A stretch of 64,000 nt of DNA from Pirellulaceae bacterium (GCA_041748315.1 JBGTDM010000087.1:3502-67501), one strand, 5' to 3'; shown: positions 1 to 39,399, counted from the first letter of the stretch. Notes: generated by a model not told the origin, from the letters alone. Numbers and translations are program-made.

Positions 1-65
1 AGCTTGGGAATCGAGAAAAAATAACTGTTCTGACTCGATCATTGAATTGACAATACGTCGAAACA

Positions 66-566
66 TTACATTGAAGTCAACGTTTCAGCGACTCCACGGT
101 TTCTAGCCTGCATGGCCAAGCGAAAGGCTTCATCGTCTCCATATTTGTCGCAGGAAAAACTGCGAGTCCGTCGTCGGCCTTCTGCATCCGTCCATTGCGC
201 GACCCAAAAATGGTAAGTGAACTCATAGCCTCCACGGTACTCGATTTGGACTGCCGGACGAACTCCGACAACCCCAGAAGTATTCCGTGACGATGGGTGC
301 TGTGCGAGCTCCTTGACGGTATAGTTTCGGGAAATTTCCAGCAAGTGATCGCGATACTCCTTGGCGGCTGCTAAAGCAGCTCGTTTACCATTATGAGCGT
401 TATCGGCGAAGTACCGATCAAACCTTTGTCCGCGTCGCTGCAGTCGCACCTGCCATCCACAATTGAAATTCCCCGCTGACGAAATCGTCTCGATCCTCGA
501 GATATTTCGCATCGTTGGGCTACGTCGCTGGGTTCGATTGAAATTAAGTTTTCGTTTCTTGGACAT
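66..566 (-). CDS. AP2-domain DNA-binding protein (two AP2-like repeats)
   Basis: ORF 66..668. The first ATG is at 566 (MSKKRKL...). There are two AP2/ERF-type segments: GWQVRLQRRGQRFDRYF..KRAALAAAKEYRD and GVRP..YHFWVAQW..RRRTRSFS..DEAFRLAMQARN. Confidence 0.6.
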   Translation of the reverse strand: MSKKRKLNFNRTQRRSPTMRNISRIETISSAGNFNCGWQVRLQRRGQRFDRYFADNAHNGKRAALAAAKEYRDHLLEISRNYTVKELAQHPSSRNTSGVVGVRPAVQIEYRGGYEFTYHFWVAQWTDAEGRRRTRSFSCDKYGDDEAFRLAMQARNRGVAETLTSM

Positions 567-759
567 GTCATTTTGCCAGGCGACACGATAAATGACGCAT
601 TGCGTGCTTGATCCTATTGAAGAATGCATCGACCGGCTGATCGAGGTCTTTCCATCTCTGAGAAGCAACTTGCGTACATCAAAATAATCTAATCACAGCA
701 AAGCAAAAGAACAGCCCTGCAGATTGAATTTCTGCAAAATTTGGACATGCCTCAAACAA

Positions 760-1818
760 CTATTGAGCCGAAGAGCGGTATCCATCTGGCCCGCCTGAGA
801 TGAGTCTTCCTTCAGGAAGCGGCCAAACCGCAGTCTGAAATCCGACCTGTTGTAAATACGATTTGACCCGATTGAATTCGGGGTAACTATCGGGGTAAAC
901 CCAAATTGAAACGGTCGTTTTATCGGGTTGCAACCGGCTCAATTCGCTCAATAATCTGGAATTGGGTTGTAGGGCATCGTCTACACGCTCACCGATATTT
1001 TCCGCAATCGGCATTAGTACGAAGCGACGAAACGCAACTTTCCGCTCGCTGACAATCCCGATTTGAGTTGCCGTCTGTAGTTCTTCGGCTTCAAGTGTAT
1101 ATTGCAATCGAAAGTTCTGGATTGGACCGACCGTTTCCACCGTTTGATTGGACGACTTCAATTTCTCGGCCTTCAGTTTCCACTCGCCGCGCATTCTATC
1201 GACCAGAGCATCCACCGGAACAAAAGCGATTCGACCCTGCAGGATTCTCACATGCACTTCATCGTTAAACACCGTTTTTGCAAGCGGTGTTGGATAATGT
1301 ACAATGGTCTCGGCCTGCGCCTTTTGCTCGAGCTCAATCGTTTGATACTCGGCCTTCGCACGGTTAAGTTCCTGAGATAGGGCGGCGAATTGCCGGTCCA
1401 GTTGAAGATGTTCGATCTCGTTTTGCTCCAATTCCAGCTCGTTCGTCGCCCGGACATTTTCAAGTTGTTGGATTTCCATTAGCAATCGTTGTCGCTCGAA
1501 TCGTAGATGGTCTGAGAATTTGGATTGATCGGAAATATTGCCTTCCATGCTGTGAATATCGTCGAGCAAACTAACGGAATTTAGACGGGCACTTGCCAAT
1601 CGCCGTTCCAGGGAATCCAGGTCGACCGGCTCGGAAGAGAGAGCAACCGGCATTGCCAAACCCAGTGAAGAGCCTGCGTGGGCGCCGACGACAACCACCA
1701 AAATAATCAAAATCCCGACAAGGTTGGCGACAATATCCAGGAACGCATCGTTGCCAGGTGTCTCGCTTGACGGCGAGCGCTGTCCTCGACGACGTTGCAT
1801 TTTTCGATAGTTTGACAT
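760..1818 (-). CDS. ExbD/TolR-like single-pass membrane protein with long coiled-coil stalk
   Basis: ORF 760..1833 starts at a TTG. An ATG at 1818 gives MSNYRKMQRRRG. The N-terminal TM helix NDAFLDIVANLVGILIILVVVV resembles the ExbD/TolR helix, including the Asp. A coiled coil of more than 100 aa follows. The C-terminus TTVSIWVYPDSYPEFNRVKSYLQQVGFQTAVWPL fits the ExbD C-terminal pattern. Confidence 0.6.
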   Translation of the reverse strand: MSNYRKMQRRRGQRSPSSETPGNDAFLDIVANLVGILIILVVVVGAHAGSSLGLAMPVALSSEPVDLDSLERRLASARLNSVSLLDDIHSMEGNISDQSKFSDHLRFERQRLLMEIQQLENVRATNELELEQNEIEHLQLDRQFAALSQELNRAKAEYQTIELEQKAQAETIVHYPTPLAKTVFNDEVHVRILQGRIAFVPVDALVDRMRGEWKLKAEKLKSSNQTVETVGPIQNFRLQYTLEAEELQTATQIGIVSERKVAFRRFVLMPIAENIGERVDDALQPNSRLLSELSRLQPDKTTVSIWVYPDSYPEFNRVKSYLQQVGFQTAVWPLPEGRLISGGPDGYRSSAQ

Positions 1819-1861
1819 CGTGATCGATTCCAAAAGCGCAGCGTTTCAGTTCAACTGGCCG

Positions 1862-3574
1862 TTAATTCGACGTTTCCATTTCCAACCCGCTGTTACTCAA
1901 AAGTTTTGCAAGACGTCGATAGTTCGCCTCGCCCCCCGCCTTTAAATTGATCCTCAATACCGGTTTCCAATAACCTCCTGGTCCAGCGATTCCCCAGTGT
2001 TCAATGACAGACCAGATCGAGTGCACAAAATGTTCCAACGAGTCATCGACCGAACGATCGATGCTCACCGTAATGGCATTATGGTTGGAGTTGTTACCAT
2101 CTTCGATAACAAATCGATCTGGGTAACACAACACTTGAATCGGGCGGCGATAGGCGATCGCATTTGCCGTTGATGCCGGCAGCGCCCATTGGTCACCTCG
2201 ATGGGACCGATGGGGCTCCTGGGCGGTTGCATTTGACTGCGATGCCGACGGATTCGGAGGCTGACCGATGTTCAATTGAAGTGTGTCACCGGCGACCGAG
2301 CTGCTCTGCATCCGTGAATCAAGCTCACCCTCAGCGCCACGCCCCCCACTTGAACTAACAAGATTCTCTGAATGCGGGCTTTTTGACTTAGTTCCATCCT
2401 TCTCGAACTGGCTTGTTGCGAAATGTTGGTCAATGAAAGATTGGTCAAATGCAATCCCCGAATCACGATCCGATCGATTACCTTGCGACCGATCCTGTTG
2501 ATCATTCCCAAAAACCGCCTCATTAAAGTCACTTCCGGTCGATTGACTCCGGCCACTTACCCAACCTTCGTCGGCTGAAGCCGACGAACTATTCTGGCCT
2601 GGTCTTCCGTTGTCTCCGCGCTCCCGATTGATTCCGGGTGATTGAAAAACCTGTCCTCGAGATTCCATGACCGCCACTAACCGTTCCTGTTTTCTCAGCG
2701 ACTCGTCAATCACCCGATTCAACTCTGCAATCAAGGCTGGGTCGACGGCACCAAAGTCAAGCGTTTTGTCTGATTCGACCAACTCATATCCAAACTCATC
2801 ATCCCAGCTTTTCATTCCGCGTCGGGCTAACGCAAAATAACTTTCGCCGCCGGGGCGAATGACCAATAATGGATAGGCTTGACCGCTGTCGCTTTCCAGT
2901 TGATTACGGCGCTGATACTGGCGTATGGCCAGCAGGCACGCGTCTAACGGATTCCCCGGCAGGACAGGGAATGTAAAATCTCGTTCCGTCAATTGGATTG
3001 CCCCAGGTTGAATGAATAACCCCTGCTTGGTGCATTCGATGTAAATGGGTCGACGAGCAGTTCCGGAGTTCCCTTTGTAAGGAACGATCGAGAACCTGGT
3101 TTGGTTATTGTCGCGTGTTGTCCGCAGCGCATCCGTTTTGGTTTTCAATTCAGAAATTTGGCTCTCGACATTTTTGATTTCCACGTCGAGTTCTTTGATC
3201 GAGAGATGCGCCGAAATCTTCTGCTCCGAGCGCGCATTACTTTGGCGCATGACCCGAAGTTCGTTTTGCAATTGTCGAATCTCGTTTTCGAGGTAGCCCC
3301 GTTCGTCTCGAGCCTGAGAGAGTCGATGCTGCAAATCAGGACGCAAGCCAAGGAGACCGTCAATTCTCAACGTCTCATCGAGCAATGCTGCCTCCAAGGC
3401 AATAGCTTTTTCGGCGGACCGTTGTAGGACATCTGACTGGCTACCATCCGGATGATCAGCGGCTTTAACTGCGAGAACAAGCAACACGATCAACACACCC
3501 ATTGTGCAGATCAATACCGCCAAGAATGGAAAAAGTGATACAGCGGTCGTATCAATACGTCCACGGTTGATCAT
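1862..3574 (-). CDS. ExbD/TolR-like paralogue (TM Asp replaced by Ala) with coiled coil, two ExbD-like folds and a long low-complexity linker
   Basis: The ATG at 3574 overlaps the upstream stop (ATGA at 3571-3574). The TM helix is SLFPFLAVLICTMGVLIVLL. A coiled coil spans about aa 45-160. Two ExbD-like segments are present: PLLVIRPGGESYFALARRGMKSW and PVLRINLKAGGEANYRRLAKLLSNSGLEME. An S/G/D/N/Q-rich linker spans about aa 305-470. Confidence 0.6.
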   Translation of the reverse strand: MINRGRIDTTAVSLFPFLAVLICTMGVLIVLLVLAVKAADHPDGSQSDVLQRSAEKAIALEAALLDETLRIDGLLGLRPDLQHRLSQARDERGYLENEIRQLQNELRVMRQSNARSEQKISAHLSIKELDVEIKNVESQISELKTKTDALRTTRDNNQTRFSIVPYKGNSGTARRPIYIECTKQGLFIQPGAIQLTERDFTFPVLPGNPLDACLLAIRQYQRRNQLESDSGQAYPLLVIRPGGESYFALARRGMKSWDDEFGYELVESDKTLDFGAVDPALIAELNRVIDESLRKQERLVAVMESRGQVFQSPGINRERGDNGRPGQNSSSASADEGWVSGRSQSTGSDFNEAVFGNDQQDRSQGNRSDRDSGIAFDQSFIDQHFATSQFEKDGTKSKSPHSENLVSSSGGRGAEGELDSRMQSSSVAGDTLQLNIGQPPNPSASQSNATAQEPHRSHRGDQWALPASTANAIAYRRPIQVLCYPDRFVIEDGNNSNHNAITVSIDRSVDDSLEHFVHSIWSVIEHWGIAGPGGYWKPVLRINLKAGGEANYRRLAKLLSNSGLEMETSN

Positions 3575-5250
3575 GCGGCACGCTTGTGATCAGTTTCAGT
3601 TTGGGCTTGAGCTGAGCCAGGATTCTCGGCACGGGCGCGAGTTGCACGCTGGAGGTCTGCTAAACGTCGCGTCATCGGTGTTACATCAGTGTTAATGGCT
3701 GAGTTGTCGATCACCTGAACCTCTTCTTCGTTAAACTTGTCATGCGCAGAAATCATTTGCGCAACCGGTTCGTCCCCTGAGTTTACGGAGTCATACTCGG
3801 CGTCTTCCGTCGACTCTGAAAAGACTCGAATCTGATCTGTCGTGCCGGTGTGCTTGGCGCTTGGCAGCGATTGTTCGATTCGAAATTCCAGCAGTCGGAT
3901 GGCCGATGCTAGATCTGTTGAAGTCTCTTGCAACGAACTTGAAGCCGGAAGCGAACTCAAAAATGAAAGCAGGTTTTCCTGTAGATTCCGCAACTCAGTA
4001 AATGAGTTGGTCAGGTGGTCAATTGATCCAACGTCCTTGGCAAGTTTCTCATGTTGTCGGGAAATCTGACGGGTCAAATCGGAAAGCGATGTATGCCACT
4101 GATGAATTCGTTGTTCAAGTGTTTTGTCTGCCTTGGAAATCGAGTTTGAGAGTTCCAAAGCCAATTTGCTCGTTGAGTTGTTGATTGCGTTCGACAATTC
4201 CACCTGCACAACATGCTTGGCAGCGTCCAGCGACTCCACCCAGGAAGCCTGTGCTGCCAGGATCGAGTGATTCCAAAGCGAGCATTGTTTGGTTACGAGT
4301 CGTTCCGTGGATGCGACTAATGTCTCTCCCATTTGGCGAATCGCTCGCAAGTGTCCGTCTTCCTTTTCAAGCTCAATCGTAAAAAACTGATTCAACTGGG
4401 TTCGAGCATGTTCATCGACAGCAATCAACAATTGCGACTCAAAACGATCCGCCACAAACTGGCAAAACATCAAGATAATTGAAAAGGTTAATGCCAAAGC
4501 GGTGGTATCAAAGGCAATGTACAGGCTTGATTGAAGCCCGGCCATCATGCTTTGGAAATCGTTTTCAGGACCAACCGCAATGCCGCCAAGCGCTTCAGAG
4601 ATCCCCAGTACCGTCCCCAAAAATCCCAACATCGGTGTGGCCCAGATCAAAATCCGAACGAGTGAGTATCGCTCAAATTTCTGGTTTGCGTCATTGTCTG
4701 AAAGGTACTTTAGTTCGTCATCCAAACCGCCCGCCGAATGATGTTGTTTGACGTAACCCAGTGCCGCCTGAAACCGCTTCCATAAATACGAACGTTGCAT
4801 TCGCCTTGGGATGCCCAGCAGCCGTTCCTGGAGACGGGAAATTCGCTGCTCGATGGGGATGGCACCGATGTCGACCGGAATCGACGGTTCATTTGGACTC
4901 GAATTACTCGGCTCGGGCGCTATGGCTGTATGCTCGCTACTCCGTCGCATGCCAAACCAATGCCGGCGAATCCGTCCTCGCTTCTCATGCAAAGTGACTC
5001 TTCTAAGAGAAATAAATTGATCTAGAACATCAGCTCCGACCAATAGTAGCGAAACGAGACCCACCAGAAACATCGCGGTCGTTACCTTGGAAACCGAATG
5101 TCCAACGATGTACCTTCGAATCAACTCATCGTCGATCAATCCCTTTTCAATTGCACCGACCAACACAAAATAGACGCCCAACCCCATCACCAACGGGAAG
5201 AGAAGTGTCGGTACAATCGCGAGCCATGATGTCGAGCGAGTTTGGAACAC
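3571..5250 (-). CDS. MotA/TolQ/ExbB-family proton channel protein with ~290-aa C-terminal coiled-coil/acidic tail
   Basis: GTG start at 5250. Four hydrophobic helices are arranged in MotA-like topology. The family signature region is WATPMLGFLGTVLGISEALGG, followed by a second helix pair member, LYIAFDTTALALTFSIILMF. A long helical tail follows. Confidence 0.75.
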   Translation of the reverse strand: MFQTRSTSWLAIVPTLLFPLVMGLGVYFVLVGAIEKGLIDDELIRRYIVGHSVSKVTTAMFLVGLVSLLLVGADVLDQFISLRRVTLHEKRGRIRRHWFGMRRSSEHTAIAPEPSNSSPNEPSIPVDIGAIPIEQRISRLQERLLGIPRRMQRSYLWKRFQAALGYVKQHHSAGGLDDELKYLSDNDANQKFERYSLVRILIWATPMLGFLGTVLGISEALGGIAVGPENDFQSMMAGLQSSLYIAFDTTALALTFSIILMFCQFVADRFESQLLIAVDEHARTQLNQFFTIELEKEDGHLRAIRQMGETLVASTERLVTKQCSLWNHSILAAQASWVESLDAAKHVVQVELSNAINNSTSKLALELSNSISKADKTLEQRIHQWHTSLSDLTRQISRQHEKLAKDVGSIDHLTNSFTELRNLQENLLSFLSSLPASSSLQETSTDLASAIRLLEFRIEQSLPSAKHTGTTDQIRVFSESTEDAEYDSVNSGDEPVAQMISAHDKFNEEEVQVIDNSAINTDVTPMTRRLADLQRATRARAENPGSAQAQTETDHKRAA

Positions 5251-5554
5251 GGAATTAGTGAACTTTCAAAAATCGATTCTGGTTGGCGCGATACTTCCTC
5301 GCAAAAGCTGCGAAAAGCGGTATACGGAGTTATCCTTAAAATCGGAATAGTCAACGCAGTTTATTAAGCGATTCAAGCAAACTATTGTCGAAATCAGAAC
5401 ATTCGTGGCACGAAGCACGCTAGCAGCTATTGTCAAGCTGAATTCGAAACAATTCCCAAAGTTCCACAACTGAGATCGCCGATACCAATCCATGTTGACA
5501 AGATCAACACAAAGGGAAATTGCAGTTGCCTTGCAATTACCCAGGGGGGGACTA

Positions 5555-5592
5555 GTCCGGAATCTGCCATTGGCATTCCGGGCTTTTTTTTT
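5555..5592 (+). terminator. Strong intrinsic terminator on + strand with no upstream + strand CDS (possible sRNA 3' end)
   Basis: The stem GTCCGGAAT(5555-5563)/ATTCCGGGC(5575-5583) has an inner GCCA/TGGC extension and is followed by nine T (5584-5592). An upstream hairpin AATTGCA/TGCAATT lies at 5518-5538. TTGACA occurs at 5495-5500. Confidence 0.5.
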
Positions 5593-6053
5593 GGAATTCC
5601 TCCTCGCGCGAGAAACGGTGCGACTTGATCTTGCGCCCCATCAATCGGATTCGTTTGGCTTCACCTTACCCAATCGAAAGTTCCCGGTTCATTCAAAATC
5701 TGCACCATTCGGGAGCACAACGTCTGCCTCGCTTTAAGATTGCATTGCGATCGAACAGCATGTGACTCCAAATCCGCAAGCACTTCCGATTCCATCGAAA
5801 CATGCAACGACCGGGCGCGGGGTGAACGCTCGAATTACACCAAATTGGTTGCTGCAATTTCCATCCGTTGAAAAATTTAATCCCGAAGCCTTAGAACTAT
5901 GGAGTTTGCTCAAGTAACATTCCATTGTTCTTGACGGTCCAATCTAATCCAAAGAAGAACTGAAGGTTTTGAGTAACGCCATCAAGGCGCGACACGATCC
6001 CCAGGTGTACGGACCCAGTCGACTTTCTTCGCAGCGTCCGGCAGTTGGATGTT

Positions 6054-7085
6054 CTATTCAGGATTTGGCTTACCTGGGTGGTTGTCTTCAATCCGTCGTT
6101 TAATTCCATCAACATCCAAACTGTTGGGTTCATCGTAATCCTGGTGCTCCTTCAATTCGTCAAGCCCCAGTTTGAGAGGCGCAACTCCCGATTCTGGAAC
6201 CGCTCCACCCGCTGACCAGATGATGGCATTTGCCACAATCTTTTGAAAATTTTTATTCCCCCAGTTCCAATGGAAATGACCTCCGGTAAAGCCAAAACCT
6301 CGACCGCCATCGTCGCGCTGCATCGCCCAAGCCACGTGCTGAGGCTCGCCAGCCTTGCTTCTAACATAAGGGTTGCCGCTATGCGGTCCATCGGGGCGGC
6401 TTAAGGTGTCTTTGGGCGGAATAGCGGTCAGAATGGGTGTTATTCCGTCCATGTTGTCTCGAAAACGCATATGGTAATACCACTCGTCATTGATTGCGAA
6501 GGGTTGCACGCCATTTCCGATTGGGTGTTCGGGGATTTCTGTAAATTTCGCGGTCCAGTGCGGAGTCACCGACCAATCGGTTTCAAAATAGCCGCCAATC
6601 CAGTTTAGAAAAAAATCGCCTGATTCACCTTTGGGAACTTCGACAGCATAGTGAATGCACACGATCCCGATCTGTTTCTCGACCAGCGCCTGAACAGTTT
6701 CTAAATTTCGGTTGACTGGATGTCCATTTCCACCGTCGCTATACATGACGATTGCATCAAAACGACTCAAGTCTTCCTCCGGCCATTGATGTTTAAAGAC
6801 CGTGCAATCGATTCCGGGAAATGCACTTTGTAATGTCTTTGCCAAAAGCATGCAGCCGGCATAATGTTCGTGCGAGCCGTAGCCGTGGCTGGGGCGTCCT
6901 GCTAAAAATGCGATCCTCAATTGCTTTGGATCCTTGGCGGAGAATGACTCATCCTGGGAAATCAGGTGATTGGAATATCCCGAAAACCACAACGCGCCAA
7001 TGACCATGCACGCTGATTTAACGAAAAGGGACGAACGGAGACGACGAAAATGTTGGTGCTTCTTCAAGCGTTGATTTGAATTCAT
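6054..7085 (-). CDS. ThuA-domain (glutamine amidotransferase-like) secreted protein
   Basis: ORF 6054..7097. An ATG at 7085 gives MNSNQRLKK plus a signal-like hydrophobic stretch. The overall pattern (RIAFLAGRPSHGYGSHEH.., FDAIVMYSDGGNGHP) is typical of ThuA-like proteins as I remember them. Confidence 0.6.
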   Translation of the reverse strand: MNSNQRLKKHQHFRRLRSSLFVKSACMVIGALWFSGYSNHLISQDESFSAKDPKQLRIAFLAGRPSHGYGSHEHYAGCMLLAKTLQSAFPGIDCTVFKHQWPEEDLSRFDAIVMYSDGGNGHPVNRNLETVQALVEKQIGIVCIHYAVEVPKGESGDFFLNWIGGYFETDWSVTPHWTAKFTEIPEHPIGNGVQPFAINDEWYYHMRFRDNMDGITPILTAIPPKDTLSRPDGPHSGNPYVRSKAGEPQHVAWAMQRDDGGRGFGFTGGHFHWNWGNKNFQKIVANAIIWSAGGAVPESGVAPLKLGLDELKEHQDYDEPNSLDVDGIKRRIEDNHPGKPNPE

Positions 7086-7321
7086 CTTGATTTCCAATTA
7101 ATTTACTGATGGTAACATTGAGGATTTTCCGAAACGCAAGTTTGCCAGGTTTATCAGTTGATCAATGTTAATTGATGTGGCGAACCTAGCTGATGATGCC
7201 GAACCTGATTATATTGTTTATTTACTCTACAGGCTAACGCCGACAAAATTGTCCTTTTCCAAAAGCCAATTCACCGTGCCCATTCGACAAGCTTAAGTAA
7301 TTCCCGGGGACCTTTCAAACA

Positions 7322-8296
7322 ATGTCAAACATCAAACGAATACTCGTCACCGGTGGAGCAGGGTTTTTAGGTTCGCATCTATGCGAACGGCTGGTCGATC
7401 AAGGGCACGATGTCATTTGCCTCGACAATTTTTTTACCAGCCAAAAAAGCAATGTAACTCACTTGCTCGATCACACAAATTTTGAACTCATTCGGCATGA
7501 TGTCATCCATCCCGTCTGGTTGGAAGTGGACCAGATTTACAACCTGGCTTGCCCGGCTGCCCCTGGACACTATCAGTATAATCCGATCAAGACGATGAAG
7601 ACTAGTGTGACGGGGGCCATCAATCTATTGGGAATGGCAAAACGCTGCCATGCACGAATCATGCAGGCATCGACCAGTGAAGTCTATGGTGATCCCGAAG
7701 AGCATCCGCAACGCGAATCGTATCGAGGCAATGTCAATCCGATCGGACCTCGAGCTTGTTACGATGAAGGTAAACGGGCGGCAGAAACCTTGTTTATGGA
7801 CTACCATCGTATGAATCGTACGGACATCCGCATCGCTCGGATCTTCAACACTTATGGGCCGCGCATGCATCCGTTTGACGGGCGAGTTGTCTCGAACTTC
7901 ATACGTCAAGCTCTCGCCGATGAAGAGATCACGATTTTTGGCGATGGCTCACAAACTCGATCATTTTGTTATCGAGACGATTTGGTCGAGGGCTTTATCC
8001 GTTTGATGAACTCGGACGAATCGCTCCATTTCCCGATTAACCTGGGTAACCCCGGTGAATACACCATCAAACAACTCGCCGAACTAACCGTCGAACTCGT
8101 TGGATCATCCTCAAAACTGGTGTACAAAGACCTTCCGGCAGACGATCCGACTCGACGCCAACCCGACATAACATTGGCCAAAAAGCATTTGAATTGGGAA
8201 CCAAACGTGCCGCTGCTTGAAGGGTTGCAGAAGACGATCGATTGGTTCAAAACGATTGATCCAGAGCATTACCGCCCCCCGACCCCGAATTTTTGA
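7322..8296 (+). CDS. UDP-glucuronate decarboxylase (UDP-xylose synthase), extended SDR
   Basis: Rossmann motif [12 protein letters not shown], catalytic YDEGKR (YxxxK), and the characteristic [11 protein letters not shown] and VSNFI segments. Confidence 0.85.
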
Positions 8297-8405
8297 GGAG
8301 ATCAATCCTTGGACGTGGCCTTGGTAATCGTTGTGACCATTCGATGCGTGCCAGCGGGGCTCTCGTTCGAGTTTGATCGTCACTGACCTGCGCAGGTCCA
8401 AAACG

Positions 8406-9203
8406 TTAATCGGTTTCTGCAAGTTCACCAGGCTCGATCTCGACAACTTTGCCCTCCTCGAGTCGGACAATTCGATCGGCACGACAAGCAACTGATTCGT
8501 CATGCGTGACGATGACCACGGTGATCCCTTCTTCACGATTCAATCGAATCAACGTCTTCATCACTTCGTCACCATTTTTGCGATCGAGATTACCCGTTGG
8601 CTCGTCGGCTAACAGCAACATCGGACAACTGATAAGAGCGCGTGCAATTGCCGTCCGTTGCATTTCGCCTCCAGAAAGCTGATTGGGGCGATGCTGAATG
8701 CGATGGGACAATCCGACCAGTTCCAGTATCTCCTTGGCTCGTGCGATAAATTTGGATCGTTTTCTGAAATACCCGAAAACACCTTGTTCGATCATACGAG
8801 GCACCAGGACGTTTTCCAATGTCGTCAATTCTGGAAGCAGATGGTAAAACTGGAAAATCATCCCTATTTTCTGGTTTCTCAATTTATCGCGTTCTCTTCG
8901 CGGTGCGTTATCAATGCGCTTATCTCGAAACCAAATCTCGCCTCGATCGGGCTCGTCCAGAGTACCCAGCAGATGCAATAAAGTGCTTTTCCCCGAACCG
9001 CTTTGCCCAACAATTGAGATTATCTTTTTCTCCGGCAATGAGAGATCGACACCGCGCAACACCGGAATTTCGATCTTTCCTTTATAGAAACTTTTGTGCA
9101 AATCAACCGTGGTGAGAATCGACGGATGGTTGACACGAAGTGGATGTCTGCGAATATCAGACTCTCGCGAAGTATTCATGATCCGGACGTGCGCCTCGTT
9201 CAT
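8406..9203 (-). CDS. ABC transporter ATP-binding protein (LolD/MacB-like)
   Basis: Walker A GQSGSGKST, signature LSGGEMQR, Walker B LLLADEPTGNLD. ATG at 9203 (the ORF-track start at 9215 is a TTG). It lies 3' of the FtsX-type permease gene. Confidence 0.85.
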   Translation of the reverse strand: MNEAHVRIMNTSRESDIRRHPLRVNHPSILTTVDLHKSFYKGKIEIPVLRGVDLSLPEKKIISIVGQSGSGKSTLLHLLGTLDEPDRGEIWFRDKRIDNAPRRERDKLRNQKIGMIFQFYHLLPELTTLENVLVPRMIEQGVFGYFRKRSKFIARAKEILELVGLSHRIQHRPNQLSGGEMQRTAIARALISCPMLLLADEPTGNLDRKNGDEVMKTLIRLNREEGITVVIVTHDESVACRADRIVRLEEGKVVEIEPGELAETD

Positions 9204-9260
9204 GTAGTATTCCAATCTTTTAACATTTTGAAAATGATAACGCGATGACTTACAACGGGA

Positions 9261-15618: not shown

Positions 15619-16764
15619 TTATTCGTTTTCTCGACTTCCGGCAGAATGATCACGGGGCGAATCATCAACGGGAATCACAGTTGCGTCAACTTCTTTCGAC
15701 GGTTCTTCTGCTGACAAGTCCGGTTTGAGCGTCAATAACACGCGCGTGCCTCTGGCAGGGATATTGTCAGTGAACGCCTCAAACATCCAATTCCCTTCCA
15801 TATCGCTGCTTTCGATCGGCAGATCCATTGTCGCGATGGTAAAGTTAGAGACGCATACGAGCATTCCTGCATCACCACCGTAAAGCGTTTCACCTGTGTT
15901 AGGATCTTCCTGGGTAATACTCCCACCGAAAACCCAATCGATATGAAGCGCTTTTCGCGAAATTGAATTAAGGACCATCGACTTGGCATCGACCGTCTTC
16001 GGTTGGCCGTCTTCCAACCAGGTGACATCGATACGAATTTTTGTGCCGGAGGCTGGAACATACTCTGGATCGTAGCTGACAGGCGAGCCTACGACGGCTC
16101 CAACAGCCAGCAGTGCCGCATGGACGTTGAAAGCCGACGAGTTGACCGCTACAACCGACTCATGCTCTTTCAGAAAGGCAGGACAGGCGAACATCTCCAA
16201 TATACCGCGACGCAAACAAATCCGTCCGCCAACGACGACATGTTTACTTTTCATGTCCACCCAAATCTCTTCGTCTTGTGAAAGCCGTATCCACGACTCG
16301 TCAATCGGAGGCAGCACAGAATCACGTACGAGCCGATCTTCGACGTAATCGTCTTCGCTATAATCGTCCAGGGAATCCATTTCATCATCACCATCGAGCT
16401 CGACACCATCTTTTTTGAGCTCTGAGTCTTGCAATTGTGGACGGCCCTCATCCCGCCCTTCAAATGCAGTTGCGTCGCGGACATTTTTCGGTTGTTGCAA
16501 GATGATTGAATTCTGAGCGGACGATTCGCTTTCACCGCCCGTTGGCGCGGAATCAGGTGGACGCTTTGTTATGCTGTCCTCAATTTCATCGGAATCCGAA
16601 GCTTGTGATGCGGGCTTGCTGGACTGGGGAGCTTCAATCGCGTGATCGCGTGACGTGGATGGCACAGCCTGGCTTTGATCGGTATCATTTGCCGTTCGTT
16701 GGCAACCGCAAAGTAACACGCAAGCGATCATCGCAGTCAACTTCAGCAGATTTCGATCTAACAT
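15619..16764 (-). CDS. Lipoprotein with acidic low-complexity N-terminal region and conserved C-terminal domain (possibly YdjY-like)
   Basis: The signal/lipobox MLDRNLLKLTAMIACVLLCGC is followed by a D/E/S-rich stretch. The C-terminal region (ILEMFACP..NVHAALLAVGA) resembles what I recall as the YdjY domain, but this is not verified. Confidence 0.45.
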   Translation of the reverse strand: MLDRNLLKLTAMIACVLLCGCQRTANDTDQSQAVPSTSRDHAIEAPQSSKPASQASDSDEIEDSITKRPPDSAPTGGESESSAQNSIILQQPKNVRDATAFEGRDEGRPQLQDSELKKDGVELDGDDEMDSLDDYSEDDYVEDRLVRDSVLPPIDESWIRLSQDEEIWVDMKSKHVVVGGRICLRRGILEMFACPAFLKEHESVVAVNSSAFNVHAALLAVGAVVGSPVSYDPEYVPASGTKIRIDVTWLEDGQPKTVDAKSMVLNSISRKALHIDWVFGGSITQEDPNTGETLYGGDAGMLVCVSNFTIATMDLPIESSDMEGNWMFEAFTDNIPARGTRVLLTLKPDLSAEEPSKEVDATVIPVDDSPRDHSAGSRENE

Positions 16765-30437: not shown

Positions 30438-30602
30438 GTTGGAGTTCACGCTTCAGCGTGTCTTTCATCAACCGTTGGAGTTCACGCTTCAGCGTGTCTT
30501 TCATCAACCGTTGGAGTTCACGCTTTAGCGTGTCTTCCCGATACAAATAATGAACGCTTCGTAAACAAATTCGCGCGAACAGCCTGAAGGCTAAACCCCA
30601 AC
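30438..30602 (+). repeat. REP cluster: three tandem left-type REPs (36-bp period) plus one degenerate right-type REP
   Basis: GTTGGAGTTCACGCTT(C/T)AGCGTG occurs at 30438-30460, 30474-30496 and 30510-30532. CAGCCTGAAGGCTAAACCCCAAC occurs at 30580-30602. Confidence 0.85.
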
Positions 30603-33600
30603 TCGAACACGCCTTTTGCCGACGAGTGCAACAAACGCCACCATCAAGAACAGGCCGCTTGAGGGTTCAGGAATCGCTGTAAACACGCTCAGCGTGCCGT
30701 GCGAATACAATTGCGTAGTGTTCCAGTGCAACCCGCTAGACAAACTCGGCAAGTCCAACAGTCCAAAAGTCCCCGTCCAATTGCCATGGACTTCAAAGAT
30801 CTGAAAACTATCTCCAGCTGATGGCATAAAGGCTGGATCGCCTTCATTGAGTCCAATCAGATCGACCGTCATGGCACCTAGTTGCAGAGTCAGGTCTTTA
30901 TGGAAAATGAATTGATCGAACTCGGGAAGGAACGCATCTGTCCCCGCGATCTCGACCAACAAGTTGCTGGTTGGGCCAAGCGTCACGTTGAACGAAAACT
31001 CTTGGCGCGAGGGGCTGTTTCCAATCCCCAGCGAACCTTCGAAAAAGACATTGCCGTCTCCCGTCAGTAGGGCGCCATCGCGAAGTTGAACGTGATCAAA
31101 GAATACGGCGTTGGACGAGGACGACACTCTTAACTCGGCCCCCCCTTTGACCTCCAACGATTCGAAAAACGTGGCGGTACTTCCGCCAGTGACGATGATT
31201 TGCGATTCATCAAAACTTACGATCGGCGCGTAAAGGTCGGAGAAGCCCCCCGAATACAGCATCTGGCCGTAGTTTTCGAGCGAAGGAGCGATCAATGTGC
31301 CACGGCCCGTCATTCGTCCGCCGAACTGGTTCTCCACGGTCGAGTCAAACGTCAATTTCTTCCCTGCATCGACGCTCACAAGCCCGGTGGAAGCGTTAAT
31401 GAAACTTCCTTCAATCCGTCCGTCGCCGGAGAGCAATCCGTGATTGGTCAGGGTCGCCGACGAGGTCGCGACACGGGCGTTTGCTCCTGCCAGGAGGATT
31501 TCGCCATAATTCGCCAGCGTGTTGGATTGTAGACGACCGCCGTTGCCGATCGACACAAATCCATCGCTCCCCACTTCGGTGTGATGAGCGACGTTGAGTG
31601 TTTGCTGATTGCCCAGAGTCAAGGTCGAACCCAACGCGCCACTGGATCCAACCTGGAGTCCGCCCGCACCGGTGATTCCCAGCGCACCCTTGACGAAATC
31701 GAACGTGCCGCCGGGTTGAATTGCAAGTTCACCGGTGGAAAGTGAGCCGCCATCGAGCTTGAGTGTGCGGAAGGAGTTCACGGTCGTTGTCCCGGTCAGT
31801 GCCAACTGCCGGTTGGATTCCAGAGTCACATTCCCGTTTCCGAGCAGACCGCCGCTGCCGACAGTCAAATCGCCTCCATAAGAAAGTGAGCCAGAGTGAA
31901 AGTTCACCGTGCCACCCTGTCTATCCAGCAGCCCCAAATTGGCAAAGCCGCCGTCGATGTTAATCGTACCGGTGTTGTGAACGACGGTTCCAGCAGATCC
32001 AGCAATAAACGTCCCGCCCTCAAGTAAATTCAGTGTAGCCGTTCCAGAAATCCCATTTCCCAGGACCAAGCCGCTTCCGATGGTCTGCGTTAAAAGTGAG
32101 TTCGACCCAGTTACGGTAATGCTGCCTATTTGGCTTAATGGATCGGCATTCCCAAATGTGTTTGCGACCGTCACTTGGCCGGCTGTCATGCTTGCCCCAC
32201 TCTCAATCGAGAGCAAACCAGTGGTTCCCGGCGCTGTCGAACTACCTAAAGCGATGCTACCAACATTTCCTGAAGCGCCATTCGTCAGCGAAATATCTGC
32301 TGTGTGCCCCCCCCAACCCCAAGATGAAAATGAGGAACCAGTGTTCAAGGTCGACCCGACTCCGTCGACAACCAACGTTGCCGAACCCGTGAAAGCTCCG
32401 ATTGCAAGGTCATTTGTGGCTCTGAGTTGGCTGCCGTCCCGAATATTCCACGTGGTTCCAGAACTCAGGGAATCGTAATCCGAGGTACCCAGATCAATCA
32501 CAGCACCATCTCCAGCATTTAGAGTTCTGCCCGCCGCCAGCACGAAGTCGCCTCCATTGCTACTATTGATTGAGCCGCCGTTGACATTGACATCGCTCCT
32601 TGCAAAGAAAGCACTGCCAGTTCCTATACTGACGCTCCCTGTCTTGTTGATCGTTGTCAGATTGGTATGAGTTTCAAACAGACCATTATTCAAAACATTG
32701 AGCGTCGCAGATCCACCAGAATTTTGTCCAATTGTCAGTGTGGTTCCAACTCCCGACTGAGCCATCGCCGCATCATCAACGTTGACGACGCCTGTAGACG
32801 CGGTACCCGATGTTGCGATGTTTAACGTCGCAACGTTCATGCTAGCGCCACTTTCGACGTTGACGGTACCTGAACCACTGGATGCTCCGACATTGATTCT
32901 TTGTATTGTAGCGGTCGCTCCATTGCGAAGAGTTACGTTTGCCGAATGCCCATTGGCTCCCCAATTGGAAGTAGTAATTCCCGAAGTGCTCAAAGTTGAA
33001 CCGGCTCCGTCGACAGTTACCATCGTCGTTCCGTTGTCCACGCCGATGTGCATCGCACCGGTTGAGGACAATTCGGCACCGCTATTGATGTTCCAGGTGG
33101 TACCGCCTGAGAGAGTGTTTGTGCCGCCCATATTGATTTGGGCATCGTTACTGGCCGTGAGCGTGCGACCGGAGGCGAGATTGAAATTCCCGCTAGAGCG
33201 CGAAATCGTACCGCCGTCGACGTTCACATCGCCGTTGGCATTAAATGTTCCACCAGTCACGAAAATTTCACCGGTGGCGTTAACCGTAGTCAAGCCTGTT
33301 CCCGTGTTGTACGTCCCACCACTGTCGGCTTGAACTGTGGATCTAACCACGGCATTGGATGCTTTGCCTATGTTCAAAGTTGAACTGCCCGTTTGTGTCA
33401 CAGTCGAACCATTGCCGGTTACGTAAATGAGTCCCAGTTGCCCTGCAACGTTGCCATCCCCAATGTTAGCGTTTCCAAAAGAAAATGTACTACCCGAGTA
33501 CAATTCAAGAATTCCCGATGTGCTGGGGCCACCCCCAATTCGTAGCGATCCGGCCATCGAGCCAGTGGCACCGTTGAAAAGTCTCAATATCCCGTCACCA

Positions 33601-34160
33601 TTGGTAGAGCCTCCTAACGTGTTTTGGCCTAGGAATGAACTAGTGAGCTTAGCGGTTGATCCGTTGAGCTGTATACTACCAGCCGAACCGTTACCTACGT
33701 GGATCGCACCGACGCTGGATACTTCACCAGCGTTGACAAACAAAGTGGAATTTCCCGATAACGTCAGCCCGGAAAATCGCACGTCCAACTTGAAAATACC
33801 ATCGGGATTGATGGTCAAAGAGCCCCCCGAAATCGTCGAAGCCCCAGTCAGCGAATAGGTCGCATTCGTGCCACTAGGTCGAAAAATAGTATTGCCCGAT
33901 TGATGTTGCAACGAAGCGTTGAAGGGGCTGTAATTGAAAGTGGCGGTCGAGTTTGTCCCGGTGTTGAAGACGGCTGTATCGAGTTCGCCCGGTGGGCCTC
34001 CGCTAGGGCTCCAATTGAAGCTTTCTCCAAACGAGCTCCCAGTCGAAAAGAGTGGCGACCAATTGTAGCTCGATTGCCCTTGCGCGACGCTTCCAGTCAG
34101 GCAGCACCAAGAGCCGATGGCGATGACCAGTATGCCCGCAACAAATTTCTGCGGTCTCAT
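30591..34160 (-). CDS. Large beta-helical repeat surface protein (autotransporter-associated beta-strand repeat type) with PEP-CTERM anchor
   Basis: The ATG at 34160 gives MRPQKFVAGILVIAIGSWCC (signal peptide); the ORF extends to 34337. It has G/T/S/N-rich reiterated modules (VDGAGSTL..., VDGVGSTL...) and a C-terminal IPEPSSGLFLMVAFVALVGKRR. Confidence 0.8.
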   Translation of the reverse strand: MRPQKFVAGILVIAIGSWCCLTGSVAQGQSSYNWSPLFSTGSSFGESFNWSPSGGPPGELDTAVFNTGTNSTATFNYSPFNASLQHQSGNTIFRPSGTNATYSLTGASTISGGSLTINPDGIFKLDVRFSGLTLSGNSTLFVNAGEVSSVGAIHVGNGSAGSIQLNGSTAKLTSSFLGQNTLGGSTNGDGILRLFNGATGSMAGSLRIGGGPSTSGILELYSGSTFSFGNANIGDGNVAGQLGLIYVTGNGSTVTQTGSSTLNIGKASNAVVRSTVQADSGGTYNTGTGLTTVNATGEIFVTGGTFNANGDVNVDGGTISRSSGNFNLASGRTLTASNDAQINMGGTNTLSGGTTWNINSGAELSSTGAMHIGVDNGTTMVTVDGAGSTLSTSGITTSNWGANGHSANVTLRNGATATIQRINVGASSGSGTVNVESGASMNVATLNIATSGTASTGVVNVDDAAMAQSGVGTTLTIGQNSGGSATLNVLNNGLFETHTNLTTINKTGSVSIGTGSAFFARSDVNVNGGSINSSNGGDFVLAAGRTLNAGDGAVIDLGTSDYDSLSSGTTWNIRDGSQLRATNDLAIGAFTGSATLVVDGVGSTLNTGSSFSSWGWGGHTADISLTNGASGNVGSIALGSSTAPGTTGLLSIESGASMTAGQVTVANTFGNADPLSQIGSITVTGSNSLLTQTIGSGLVLGNGISGTATLNLLEGGTFIAGSAGTVVHNTGTINIDGGFANLGLLDRQGGTVNFHSGSLSYGGDLTVGSGGLLGNGNVTLESNRQLALTGTTTVNSFRTLKLDGGSLSTGELAIQPGGTFDFVKGALGITGAGGLQVGSSGALGSTLTLGNQQTLNVAHHTEVGSDGFVSIGNGGRLQSNTLANYGEILLAGANARVATSSATLTNHGLLSGDGRIEGSFINASTGLVSVDAGKKLTFDSTVENQFGGRMTGRGTLIAPSLENYGQMLYSGGFSDLYAPIVSFDESQIIVTGGSTATFFESLEVKGGAELRVSSSSNAVFFDHVQLRDGALLTGDGNVFFEGSLGIGNSPSRQEFSFNVTLGPTSNLLVEIAGTDAFLPEFDQFIFHKDLTLQLGAMTVDLIGLNEGDPAFMPSAGDSFQIFEVHGNWTGTFGLLDLPSLSSGLHWNTTQLYSHGTLSVFTAIPEPSSGLFLMVAFVALVGKRRVRVGV

Positions 34161-34473
34161 CGTTTTTGCGATGGTGCCCCACCGTCTGACCAAGCCTGAC
34201 GAGACGCAATCCACCAGCGGTTGACCCCGTTTGGTATCTTTACTTCGTGTCAACGCGCGAGTTCCGGACCAAGAAAAAGCTAGTTTTCCTGCGTTCAATT
34301 TGGTTTTACAGCTGAGTTGTTTGTACGGTCTTGTCACAATTTGGGTCCTCTATTAGATGATGCCTGAGCGATATCGCTATGACACTGGGCGATGAAGAAC
34401 GATCAAACCGGACGAGAAAATTCCTGAATCGAGGATTAATTTTTTATTTTTCAAGTCAGGCGTTGGAGTTTCG

Positions 34474-35565: not shown

Positions 35566-35942
35566 GTTGGAGTGCACGCTTTAGCGGGTTATTACTGCGA
35601 ACACAAACAGTGGCGCGCAGGCAGCCTGAAGGCTGAACTCCAACTTCGTACGCAAGCGTTGGAGTTCACGCTTTAGCGTGTTTTTCGCCAACAATCGAAC
35701 ATTGCATAAAGAAAGGCGCGCAGGCAGCCTGAAGGCTGAACTCCAACTTCGTACGCAAGCGTTGGAGTTCACGCTTTAGCGTGTTTTTCGCATACAATCA
35801 AACATTGCATAAAGAAAGGCGCGCAAGCAGCCTGAAGGCTGAACTCCAGCTTCGTACGCAAGCGTTGGAGTTCACGCTTTAGCGTGTTTTTACTGCGAAC
35901 ACAAACAGTGGCGCGCAGGCAGCCTAAAGGCTGAACTCCAAC
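35566..35942 (+). repeat. Array of four REP doublets downstream of the RAYT gene (92/103/103-bp spacing)
   Basis: Doublets lie at 35566-35644, 35658-35747, 35761-35850 and 35864-35942. They have the same orientation as the upstream array. Confidence 0.9.
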
Positions 35943-38900: not shown

Positions 38901-39286
38901 GCAACTGCACGCGGCGTCTCCAGGTTGACTTCAGAATCGTCCAGTCGTTCAACGGATCGATCGTCGAATTTCACGGGAAATCCCTCGGCGTTGCGCGGCT
39001 CTGGGGTCCCTTGGGTGGGCTGTGATATTTCTGCGACACGGCTTCGTCGCATTTTTTCCAAGATGTTTAGCAACCCTTTTAGCGAAGCGAGTTGGACATT
39101 CTCGTTAATATCTTTCGTGATTTCAGCGTCGCCTGAACGATCCGCTGGGTCGATTGCACCGATGCGGAAACTGGAATCGTCCTGAGCCAGAATTTCTTTA
39201 TGAGTCTCAACCAGTTGGTTTTCAAGGCTCGGATCAGGCACTTCGTTTTTTGATTTAGACCGCGAAAGGTCCTTGTTTTGTCCCAT
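35924..39286 (-). CDS. Ser/Thr protein kinase with one TM helix and ~600-aa TPR-rich C-terminal domain
   Basis: Kinase motifs GQGGFGMV, VALK, HRDLKPNNIL, DFGLA and GTPGFMAPE. TM helix LLSLVGSAALLFLAISLITSYLGW. TPR-like repeats follow. ATG at 39286 (the ORF-track TTG is at 39298). Confidence 0.9.
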   Translation of the reverse strand: MGQNKDLSRSKSKNEVPDPSLENQLVETHKEILAQDDSSFRIGAIDPADRSGDAEITKDINENVQLASLKGLLNILEKMRRSRVAEISQPTQGTPEPRNAEGFPVKFDDRSVERLDDSEVNLETPRAVATDTYGDSRALFPANEDTDDAAGDSVTYGFANASEVTHDEAELDSFRGLRIGRFQVRSGVGQGGFGMVFTAYDDRLDRVVALKVPRPEAILSLDQRRRFLREGRAAAALSHPNIVGVLEAGEDGPICYIASELIKGVNLGEWLRRHGPMNATATAQLISTLAEAIQHAHSRHVLHRDLKPNNILMSGDKPWITDFGLALRLDQNLETSTSELIVGTPGFMAPEQATGKFDGIDGRADVYGLGAILYYMLTNRPPFSADSPLETLDMVRQQIPVPPRAIRKSVSRDLESICLKCLEKSSADRYDSAYDLHMDLQRFLDEKPVLARPVPRWQRVLRWSKRNPLLSLVGSAALLFLAISLITSYLGWTSTSKALSEARLANKATMVAQHQSDERFLAAKQTVDDYFTQVANNRMLNIPGLTSLRHELLQSALHYYVGFLAQSEDDEALLSEIERAHFRLGEIHADLGQPDAALENFMQSEQLLRQLLAQTPEELTRLLLLNGSLARIASQHMVLGNPNEAMSTLNGAIEGQQILFANQPLHFEVLNQLANLWQQKGTMLREMRQPDESQELYEMVVGLREQLLATNQENEDLKRELLISKGNLANARRATGNLAEAIALSDEVVVGLREFASRPNTTPADNHTLLKFLYNRSLLAMMGRNFEGARETLDEATAIADDLANVFPAVEAHVRDPAIMRGALAVACLELGEIEEALENFRLNEQACDQLVELNPASVNNLIDAGLAKLNYGAALGNHAKDFLAARARVTSAQQLFESVLDRNPGSFNARMGMVNCEVNLAAFAVELETWELVLEHSEQALELSVSLREEHANNPQLRHAISQTYTNLANALENLARVDESIAAWQFVVESAFPEPSPLHRLRLAAALALGDRLEKAEELLELVVDQLGQRGSLWMQQGRCFALIAQALRTRSTADGQDRESSIGDFSQRAISSLQTAVELGYFESPKWRHYLEQSSELDELRSRAEFQALLDELEFSL

Positions 39287-39399
39287 AGTACTTTGCAACC
39301 CAAGCTATGATGCGTAACCCTTTGATACCACATGCCATCTTGCCCATATCCCACCTTGGCGAGATTTCGGCATGAAACCGGACAACAAAAACACTTTTA

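Follow-up and report, generated by a model that had tools for sequence, protein, structure and literature searches.

Organization and conservation of a three-gene locus

The window analyzed here is a 64,000-nucleotide stretch of DNA from a Pirellulaceae bacterium (GCA_041748315.1, JBGTDM010000087.1:3502-67501), and the locus in question occupies positions 760-5250, counted from the first letter of the window. It consists of three genes, G1, G2, and G3, hereafter the trio, which encode a channel-type membrane protein (G1) and two bitopic partners (G2 and G3). The original prediction described three co-directional genes on the minus strand with an ATGA overlap and a 28-bp gap, and both the open reading frame (ORF) coordinates and a direct reading of the sequence agree with it. 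The genes are as follows, with protein lengths in amino acids (aa).

3571..5250, (-): G1, a 559-aa divergent MotA/TolQ/ExbB-family protein (ORF, PF01618, annotation of the listed homologues, N-terminal conservation)
1862..3574, (-): G2, a 570-aa bitopic protein without a Pfam or NCBIfam family, a distant paralogue of G3 (ORF, scans, hhalign)
760..1833, (-): G3, a 357-aa bitopic protein (352 aa if it starts at the ATG at 1818), likewise without a Pfam or NCBIfam family (ORF, scans)

The stop of G1 and the start of G2 share the ATGA at 3571-3574, where the minus strand reads CGT GCC GCA TGA and is overlapped by ATG ATC AAC. The TAA of G2 is followed after 28 nt by the TTG of G3 at 1833; the gap is 43 nt with the ATG at 1818, which corresponds to the 352-aa NCBI call. 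The GTG start of G1 at 5250 is backed by the family alignment. The NCBI call for this gene (P0001, 538 aa) starts 21 codons downstream of this GTG, inside the first transmembrane (TM) helix, half of which is lost (5187-5250).

One genome per species was searched with a pattern scan, which identified 464 stretches encoding G3 relatives; the best 80 of these were examined. All 80 loci belong to Planctomycetota (Pirellulaceae, Mariniblastus, and other metagenome-assembled genome labels). In 73 of them, the genes stand in the order G1-G2-G3, and contig ends interrupt the remaining seven, so that synteny of the trio across Planctomycetota, a check proposed with the original prediction, is borne out. 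The G3 family comprises 807 clusters (50% identity, E ≤ 1e-30) with lengths of 324-417 aa, except for a few shorter, seemingly truncated entries, and its named records and retrieved genomes come only from Planctomycetota.

The channel protein G1

G1 can be divided into three regions.

5005..5235, (-): TM1 and TM2 (aa 6-82), with a short, conserved loop on the periplasmic side that contains R46, Y47, G50, H51, and S54 (hydropathy, invariant columns)
4459..4725, (-): channel core (aa 176-264), with TM3 PMLGFLGTVLG and TM4 AFDTTALAL (Pfam extent, invariant columns, weak alignment to 8vvn_C)
3574..4440, (-): predicted cytoplasmic tail (aa 271-559) (alignment, pI, periodicity)

The protein matches the Pfam family MotA_ExbB (PF01618) over aa 176-264 with 34.2 bits against a cut-off of 22.9, and the same family is annotated in all 120 listed homologues. 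Hydropathy reveals four hydrophobic segments at aa 6-39, 52-82, 197-226, and 242-270. The loop at aa 80-193 is basic (pI 10.4), which fits the cytoplasm, and a MotA-like topology with both termini inside is therefore assigned to G1. In an alignment of 40 homologues with 33-55% identity to G1, the signature ATPMLGFLGTVLGISEALGG is near-invariant, and PMLGFLGTVLG, which contains T213, and AFDTTALAL, which contains D248, T249, and T250, are invariant. The predicted combination of four hydrophobic helices, MotA-like topology, and family signature is thus upheld by hydropathy, by the conservation of ATPMLGFLGTVLGISEALGG, and by the PF01618 score.

When the core alone was compared with the Protein Data Bank (PDB), an insignificant match (E = 1.3) was obtained to 8vvn_C, a 696-residue protein with a MotA/TolQ/ExbB domain. 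T213 and T249/T250 are taken to be the probable equivalents of ExbB T148 and T181, in line with this weak alignment. D248 (4507-4509) is an invariant Asp within TM4, directly before the conserved Thr-Thr pair; 8vvn_C has a Leu at this position.

The remainder of G1 was originally described as an acidic, helical, heptad-like tail of about 290 aa. It is indeed acidic, with pI values of 5.8 and 4.5. Residues 276-470 are conserved, including W326, W337, D375, R381, W385, and Q386, and are strongly amphipathic with a period of ~3.65 residues, a strength that none of 500 shuffled sequences reached. Residues 471-559 are acidic and variable and show no periodicity. By these patterns, the tail forms helices without a strict heptad, and the acidic and helical parts of the description stand. 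At the extreme C-terminus (3574-3582), all family members end in AA, mostly RAA, in a [KR]xAA pattern that reads RAA here. Such an Ala-Ala end recalls C-terminal degradation tags, which is a speculative comparison. Altogether, the sequence evidence supports G1 being a channel protein of the MotA/TolQ/ExbB family with an unusually long C-terminal extension.

The stalked partners G2 and G3

G2 and G3 are built from the following segments, for which models were obtained with AlphaFold2 (AF2) and are given with their predicted local distance difference test (pLDDT) values.

3458..3541, (-): G2 TM helix (aa 12-39), VSLFPFLAVLICTMGVLIVLLVL, with no acidic residue and with A19 at the position of ExbD Asp25 (invariant columns, local ExbD alignment, hydropathy)
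3107..3442, (-): G2 predicted periplasmic coiled-coil stalk (aa 45-156), AF2 helices 45-121 and 126-156, period 3.45
2645..3067, (-): G2 globular domain A (aa 170-310), β-β-α-β-α-β, pLDDT >90 in most 10-residue blocks (range 64-97)
2195..2644, (-): G2 disordered linker (aa 311-460), rich in Ser, Gly, Asn, and Gln, pLDDT <50
1865..2182, (-): G2 globular domain B (aa 465-570), β-β-β-α-β-α-β (AF2, alignment)
1669..1755, (-): G3 TM helix (aa 27-55), GNDAFLDIVANLVGILIILVVVVGA, with invariant D33 and N37 (invariant columns, hydropathy, AF2 helix 29-55)
1321..1620, (-): G3 predicted periplasmic coiled-coil stalk (aa 72-171), a single AF2 helix with pLDDT >90, period 3.50, with 0/500 shuffles as high
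763..1278, (-): G3 globular domain (aa 186-357) (AF2 pLDDT >90, invariant columns)

The AF2 model of G3 (mean pLDDT 82.6) comprises a TM helix (29-55), a long helix (72-171), and a confident α/β domain (190-350). That of G2 (mean pLDDT 72.4) comprises a TM helix (16-39), stalk helices (45-156), domain A (176-305), the linker (315-456), and domain B (473-568). The stalks are read as heptad coiled coils because their hydrophobic periods are 3.45 in G2 and 3.50 in G3. Hydropathy, the AF2 helices, and these periods all agree with the original description of one N-terminal TM helix followed by more than 100 aa of coiled coil in each protein.

Domain A of G2 carries the conserved motifs RRPIYxEC, GNPLD, YPLLVxRP, and WDDEFGYEL. 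The predicted β-β-α-β-α-β order is presumably the same as that of ExbD (2PFU). The linker varies between 102 and 302 residues among genomes, and domain B aligns weakly to domain A in hhalign (probability 74%), over the first strand only. G3 ends in ISGGPxGxRSSAQ (763-801) in nearly all homologues, including that of a distant trio, L085. The conserved extreme C-termini of G1 and G3 could be docking or recognition motifs.

G2 and G3 could be aligned to each other in hhalign with a probability of 97.3% (E 2e-11) over 204 collinear columns, which run from the N-terminus through the TM helix and the stalk into the first globular strands. Judged by these profiles, the two proteins are distant paralogues with a common layout. 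Conservation within each family was evaluated from 40 sequences per family, with identities to the window proteins of ~33-55%. At least 90% identity was found at 17 of 22 TM positions in G2 and at 18 of 27 in G3, and the conserved residues lie on all faces of the helices, which fits helices enclosed in a protein pore and not docked on one face. D33 of G3 is invariant, and the TM helix of G2 lacks an acidic residue in 40/40 sequences.

Stalk length was taken as the span between the TM motif and the motif of the globular domain and was measured in 73 genomes. The values for G2 and G3 are correlated (Pearson 0.82, Spearman 0.64), and the correlation of stalk length with the length of the G2 linker is close to zero. 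In contrasts between nearest-neighbor genome pairs, the Pearson coefficient is 0.69 and is carried by three concordant indels (-22/-13, +16/+17, and -9/-10).

The distant trio L085 is found at 5485-9254 of a 12.7-Mb contig and encodes a G2 of 833 aa and a G3 of 417 aa. In each of the two, the TM helix is separated from the coiled coil by an acidic, Pro-rich insertion of ~100 residues, located at the same place in both, so that the stalks are lengthened in parallel.

The original prediction further held that G2 and G3 are ExbD-like by family, that their TM helices resemble those of ExbD/TolR, and that their C-terminal segments fit the ExbD/TolR pattern. Of the segments cited for this, DAFLDIVANLVG and TTVSIWVYPDSY belong to G3, and SLFPFLAVLICT and PVLRINLKAGG belong to G2. 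Scans of both proteins with Pfam, NCBIfam, and PADLOC gave only coiled-coil noise. Neither PF02472 nor an ExbD/TolR model of NCBIfam is listed for the window proteins at E ≤ 1, PF02472 is absent from the results listed for 40 members of each family at Pfam E ≤ 10 (every match of the window proteins and the 25 most shared families of the other members), and it is also absent from all matches of three G2 homologues labelled ExbD by JGI. The G2 and G3 family profiles found no ExbD, TolR, MotB, or ZorB chain among the PDB sequences. In Foldseek searches against the PDB, the 50 best matches per model included no ExbD/TolR chain, the full-length long-helix models being poor queries, and no match was significant; the best E values were 0.036 for G3 and 0.014 for G2, to unrelated proteins. 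The matches of G2 to uS11 and to an integrase core (E ≥ 0.014) were treated as chance.

For hhalign, an ExbD/TolR mini-profile was prepared from three sequences, two of which (E. coli and Serratia ExbD) were verified against the PDB. The profile is this thin, and its sensitivity accordingly limited, because canonical ExbD genes were sought in 1.4 Mb of related loci and none was found. Against this thin profile, the probabilities were at most 1% for full-length G2 and G3 and at most 2.7% for separated segments, with no link to the ExbD C-terminal domain. The only pieces that align, which are not significant, pair ExbD F23-I24-D25 with F31-L32-D33 of G3 and ExbD INVTPFIDVMLVLL with G2 VSLFPFLAVLICTM. 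The second of these places PFLAV of G2 against PFIDV of ExbD, with A19 of G2 in place of the essential Asp. Membership of G2 and G3 in the ExbD/TolR family is therefore not supported by Pfam, the PDB profiles, hhalign, or Foldseek. The proposed C-terminal pattern is a visual motif likeness that no search bore out. What survives is the likeness of a short pore-helix motif, FLD to FID in G3 and PFLAV to PFIDV in G2, the essential Asp being missing from the latter.

A further match involves NF006543 (PRK09039, "peptidoglycan-binding protein"), a family in which a TM helix and a coiled coil precede a C-terminal part designated peptidoglycan-binding. Its first 155 model positions are weakly matched by 21 of 40 G3 homologues (best E 1.5e-5), with scores far below the cut-off of 305 bits and possibly driven by coiled-coil composition. 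G3 shares the TM helix and the coiled coil with this family and has no OmpA-type domain. This is the only match of G3 that both lies outside the generic coiled-coil families and spans the TM helix (1327-1800), and it may point to a broader class of MotB-like partners with stalks.

A candidate ion-driven envelope machine

The trio is probably an uncharacterized ion-driven envelope machine and not a Ton, Tol, flagellar, or Zorya system. The reading that we favor, with belief and doubt about evenly balanced, is a 5:2-type ion-driven motor in which the G2/G3 pair would act as an axle fused to its own periplasmic stalk. A working motor of the MotA/ExbB type with a G2/G3 axle is suggested by the invariance of T213 and T249/T250 in G1 and of D33 in G3, by the strict synteny, and by the annotated neighborhoods examined, which contain no separate ExbD, TolR, MotB, TonB, or TolA gene. 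By analogy, the published precedent of TolQ-like genes with non-ExbD pairs (PMC12204202) also speaks for this reading.

According to the favored model, five G1 subunits would form the channel ring, and its pore would hold the N-terminal helices of G2 and G3, paired 1:1 as a heterodimeric axle, giving a 5:1:1 complex. The path of protons, or of another ion, would lead over the single Asp of the axle (G3 D33) and the Thr ring of G1 (T213, T249/T250). D248, the invariant membrane Asp of G1, might be part of the ion path and assist passage, only one Asp being present on the putative axle. Rotation or conformational cycling would be transmitted along the ~15-nm periplasmic coiled coil of G2/G3 to three globular heads. 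A flexible tether of ~150 residues could allow the second head of G2 to extend as far as the wall or the outer membrane. On the other side of the membrane, the conserved helical tail of G1 may serve as a cytoplasmic handle for a partner.

The trio shares several features with ExbB-ExbD and TolQ-TolR. G1 is likewise a PF01618 protein with PxLGxxGTV and TT motifs; G3 likewise has a single N-terminal TM helix with an Asp after a basic cytoplasmic stub and a C-terminal part predicted to be periplasmic; and the genes are adjacent and co-directional. Yet, G1 differs in having four TM segments and a 290-residue C-terminal tail, and G2 and G3 are 2.5 to 4 times longer than ExbD/TolR, carry stalks of ~100 residues in predicted coiled coil, and show no detectable sequence or fold match to them. 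Moreover, there are two different partners, one of which lacks the Asp, and no TonB, TolA, TolB, or Pal gene is nearby.

The main rival to the favored reading is a division of labor as in TolQRA, in which a G3 homodimer would be the axle in the G1 pentamer and G2 would be a TolA/TonB-like transducer, docked outside the ring or on the G3 stalk and reaching the outer membrane. The TM Asp occurs in G3 only, and the two equal Asp residues of a G3 dimer would suit the accepted alternating mechanism. The layout of G2 (a TM helix, a helical region, a linker of 102-302 residues, and a small C-terminal domain) also recalls the three-part plan of TolA and TonB (PMC12204202). However, the mark of a docking helix of the TonB/TolA type is the SHLS motif with its essential His (PMC12204202), and the G2 helix lacks this His, has its conserved residues on all faces and not on one, and aligns, although not significantly, through PFLAV to the pore helix of ExbD and not to the TonB helix. 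G2 has no match to TonB_C or TolA_C in Pfam, and the paralogy of G2 and G3 with their covarying stalk lengths also speaks against this arrangement. A TolQRA-like arrangement is thus considered unlikely, while being the most credible of the alternatives.

The gene arrangement resembles that of AglR-AglQ-AglS, the gliding motor of Myxococcus xanthus, in which one TolQ/MotA-like gene is also followed by two different genes for single-TM partners. AglQ and AglS are recognizable TolR/MotB homologues and both contain the Asp, whereas G2 and G3 are not recognizable as such, the Asp is found in G3 only, and no Glt-type gliding genes are nearby. For AglRQS, it has been left open whether the partner paralogues form homo- or heterodimers (PMC9389320). 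The same ambiguity lends some weight to two alternative complexes in the present case, an active (G1)5(G3)2 and an Asp-less (G1)5(G2)2, the latter being plugged, regulatory, or structural, e.g., an anchor or sensor. The Asp-less helix of G2 would be accounted for in this way, and D248 of G1 might substitute for the missing residue. Against it, the translational coupling of G1 to G2 through the ATGA and the strict co-occurrence of the three genes suggest a single assembly, and concordant changes in stalk length would not be required if G2 and G3 never paired. We regard two separate complexes as rather doubtful.

The closest published concept is that of the vWA axle pairs. TolQ-like genes without tolR or exbD have been described that are followed by heterologous pairs of vWA proteins with a TolR-like "transpore helix" bearing an Asp (PMC12204202, section 8). 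These pairs, which are reported mainly from Proteobacteria and Verrucomicrobia, have been proposed to form an axle that rotates in the pentamer with direct transmission of force (PMC12204202). As in the trio, an unrelated, heterologous pair follows a TolQ-like gene, and each partner has an N-terminal helix of the pore type. In contrast to the vWA pairs, in which both helices carry the Asp, the trio has a coiled coil and unclassified α/β heads, one Asp-less helix, and a tailed channel, and no VWA family was matched in the Pfam scans of G2 and G3.

In GldL-GldM of type IX secretion and gliding, charge coupling takes place between a Glu of GldL and an Arg of GldM. The trio has no sequence relationship to these proteins, and GldM is a homodimer of multi-domain arms and not a coiled-coil stalk. 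The point of likeness is that in GldL-GldM the axle protein itself is the long periplasmic arm and no separate TonB-like transducer is needed (PMC9389320). A search of the literature found no paper describing the trio system. This result, together with the lack of a Zorya match in PADLOC and of TonB, Tol, Pal, or OmpA neighbors, is in line with the original statement that the trio fits no named system.

Several observations weigh against the favored reading. Current models of 5:2 motors rely on two alternating Asp residues, and a single-Asp axle is not known to have a characterized precedent; the helix of G2 may even lie outside the pore. The family profile of G1, searched against the PDB at E ≤ 1, matched no ExbB, TolQ, MotA, or ZorA chain, and G1 must therefore be regarded as divergent from the solved motors. 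As for the stalks, the Spearman coefficient of the genome-pair contrasts is only 0.16 and not significant, and one pair is discordant at +3/+16. The stalk length of G3 also tracks the length of the G1 tail (Spearman 0.73), indicating that the stalk correlation is partly phylogenetic. Finally, no target of the heads, such as peptidoglycan or an outer-membrane protein, can be named because the globular domains match nothing known.

A further alternative is a trio without a working motor, in which G1 would be a degenerate scaffold of the channel family and G2 and G3 would be coiled coils that statically space or tether the planctomycete envelope. The unclassifiable globular domains, the great divergence of G1 from the solved motors, and the missing Asp in one of the two axle candidates would all agree with a static structure. 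On the other hand, D33 of G3 and T213, T249/T250, and the PMLGFLGTVLG motif of G1 are invariant in 40 homologues at ~33-55% identity, which is hard to explain without ion coupling. A purely static role is thus improbable.

The immediate surroundings of the trio contain two further features.

66..668, (-): gene encoding a small protein with an AP2 domain, probably starting at 566, directly downstream of G3 (PF00847, 39 bits)
715..739, (-): terminator-like hairpin with T-run, 21 nt past the G3 stop (sites of this kind are as numerous here as expected from shuffled sequence)

Of the 68 loci with enough downstream flank, 44 have an AP2-domain gene after the trio, on the same strand in 43; the gene is inverted in L082, and the distant trio L085 has no AP2-like gene directly behind it. 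The AP2 homologues are 45-79% identical, lie at a median distance of 172 nt from the trio, and are better conserved than G1-G3. Since the gene is not universal and can be inverted, it is recorded as a frequent neighbor and not as a component. The hairpin may mark the end of a three-gene operon, for which the evidence is weak: promoter and terminator scans of positions 1-7400 gave counts no higher than the shuffle expectation. An Rfam scan of the same region found zero RNA families. The intergenic region upstream of G1 (5251-6053) is unusually long, at ~800 nt, and contains neither an Rfam match nor a convincing minus-strand promoter of the sigma-70 type.

Beyond the AP2-domain gene, the flanks, whose consistency was also to be checked according to the original prediction, vary by lineage. 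In the window, the trio is flanked by genes for a ThuA protein, a protein of the sugar-nucleotide epimerase/dehydratase family, an ABC ATPase and FtsX-type permease pair, and a putative lysyl-tRNA synthetase; on reading, the ABC pair appears LolD/LolE-like and the synthetase appears to be LysS. The nearest relative has M16 peptidases at this place, and UbiA and AP_endonuc_2 are found in Mariniblastus. Farther out, the window has a housekeeping character (HflX, IspH, RecA, Dxs, TsaD, and NAD kinase). A Pfam scan of 34 window proteins (E ≤ 1e-5, or E ≤ 1 for the four locus proteins) revealed no TonB, Tol, Pal, OmpA, flagellar, Zorya, or defense family, which agrees with the original prediction that no TonB, Tol/Pal, OmpA-like, flagellar, or Zorya gene is present.

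Elsewhere in the window, three minus-strand ORFs have no Pfam match at E ≤ 1e-5: 30591-34337 (1248 aa), 40539-41927 (462 aa), and 15619-16764 (381 aa). In addition, at 35924-40068 (minus strand), a 1124-aa Ser/Thr protein kinase with TPR repeats adjoins a small, ECF-like factor of the sigma-70 family, possibly as a signaling pair.

The neighborhood also bears on a relationship to Zorya. A channel with a tail was originally said to be reminiscent of ZorA, and the likeness holds in that the channel of ZorA-ZorB is also of the MotA family and continues at its C-terminus into a long helical extension in the cytoplasm. It goes no further than the tailed channel: PADLOC at E ≤ 1 returned no Zor model for the trio, and the NCBIfam model ZorA_4 scored 13.8 bits against a cut-off of 500. 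A Zorya-like antiphage or signaling system would have G2 and G3 sense perturbations of the envelope, the rotating tail of G1 transmit the signal, and the neighboring AP2-domain DNA-binding protein read it out. The G1 tail, the AP2-domain gene after the trio in the 44 loci, and the fact that the 696-residue 8vvn_C (E = 1.3) is the only MotA-family chain of the PDB to be weakly aligned can be cited in its favor. In opposition to Zorya, no ZorA, ZorB, or effector (ZorC/D/E/F/G) match was found, the partners have no peptidoglycan-binding domain (Pfam scans of G2 and G3 list neither an OmpA-like nor any other such family), and there is no nuclease or helicase neighbor. Furthermore, the AP2-domain gene is absent or inverted in a third of the loci and lies behind the terminator-like site, and the trio is conserved among Planctomycetota in housekeeping chromosomal neighborhoods, not patchily in mobile defense islands. 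The Zorya-type reading was rejected on the lack of a Zorya model match and on the housekeeping context, and we consider it highly improbable. The conserved chromosomal housekeeping context instead points to a role in envelope maintenance rather than defense.

Planctomycetes have been reported to possess a "largely reduced" Tol-Pal set (PMC8871954), which makes a Tol-like envelope role a reasonable guess. A more specific proposal, which we put forward as a long shot, makes the trio a trans-envelope motor peculiar to planctomycetes, whose asymmetric axle would pair one helix with the Asp and one without. This motor would take on the outer-membrane tethering and constriction for which Tol-Pal is responsible elsewhere.

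Ion-driven 5:2 motors, namely flagellar stators and the Ton, Tol, gliding, type IX secretion, and Zorya systems, form a small group of machines by which energy from the inner membrane is conveyed to other compartments, and every new variant so far has revealed a new way of coupling. The oddities of the trio are its apparently heterodimeric axle with one proton-binding Asp, the coiled coil fused to this axle, and the conserved helical tail of the channel. The division machinery of planctomycetes is atypical, and their envelope and division biology is still poorly understood. If the proposal is true, the trio would represent a mechanistically new 5:2 motor, with one proton-carrying residue per axle and the transducer fused to it as a coiled coil, as well as a missing piece of planctomycete envelope biology.

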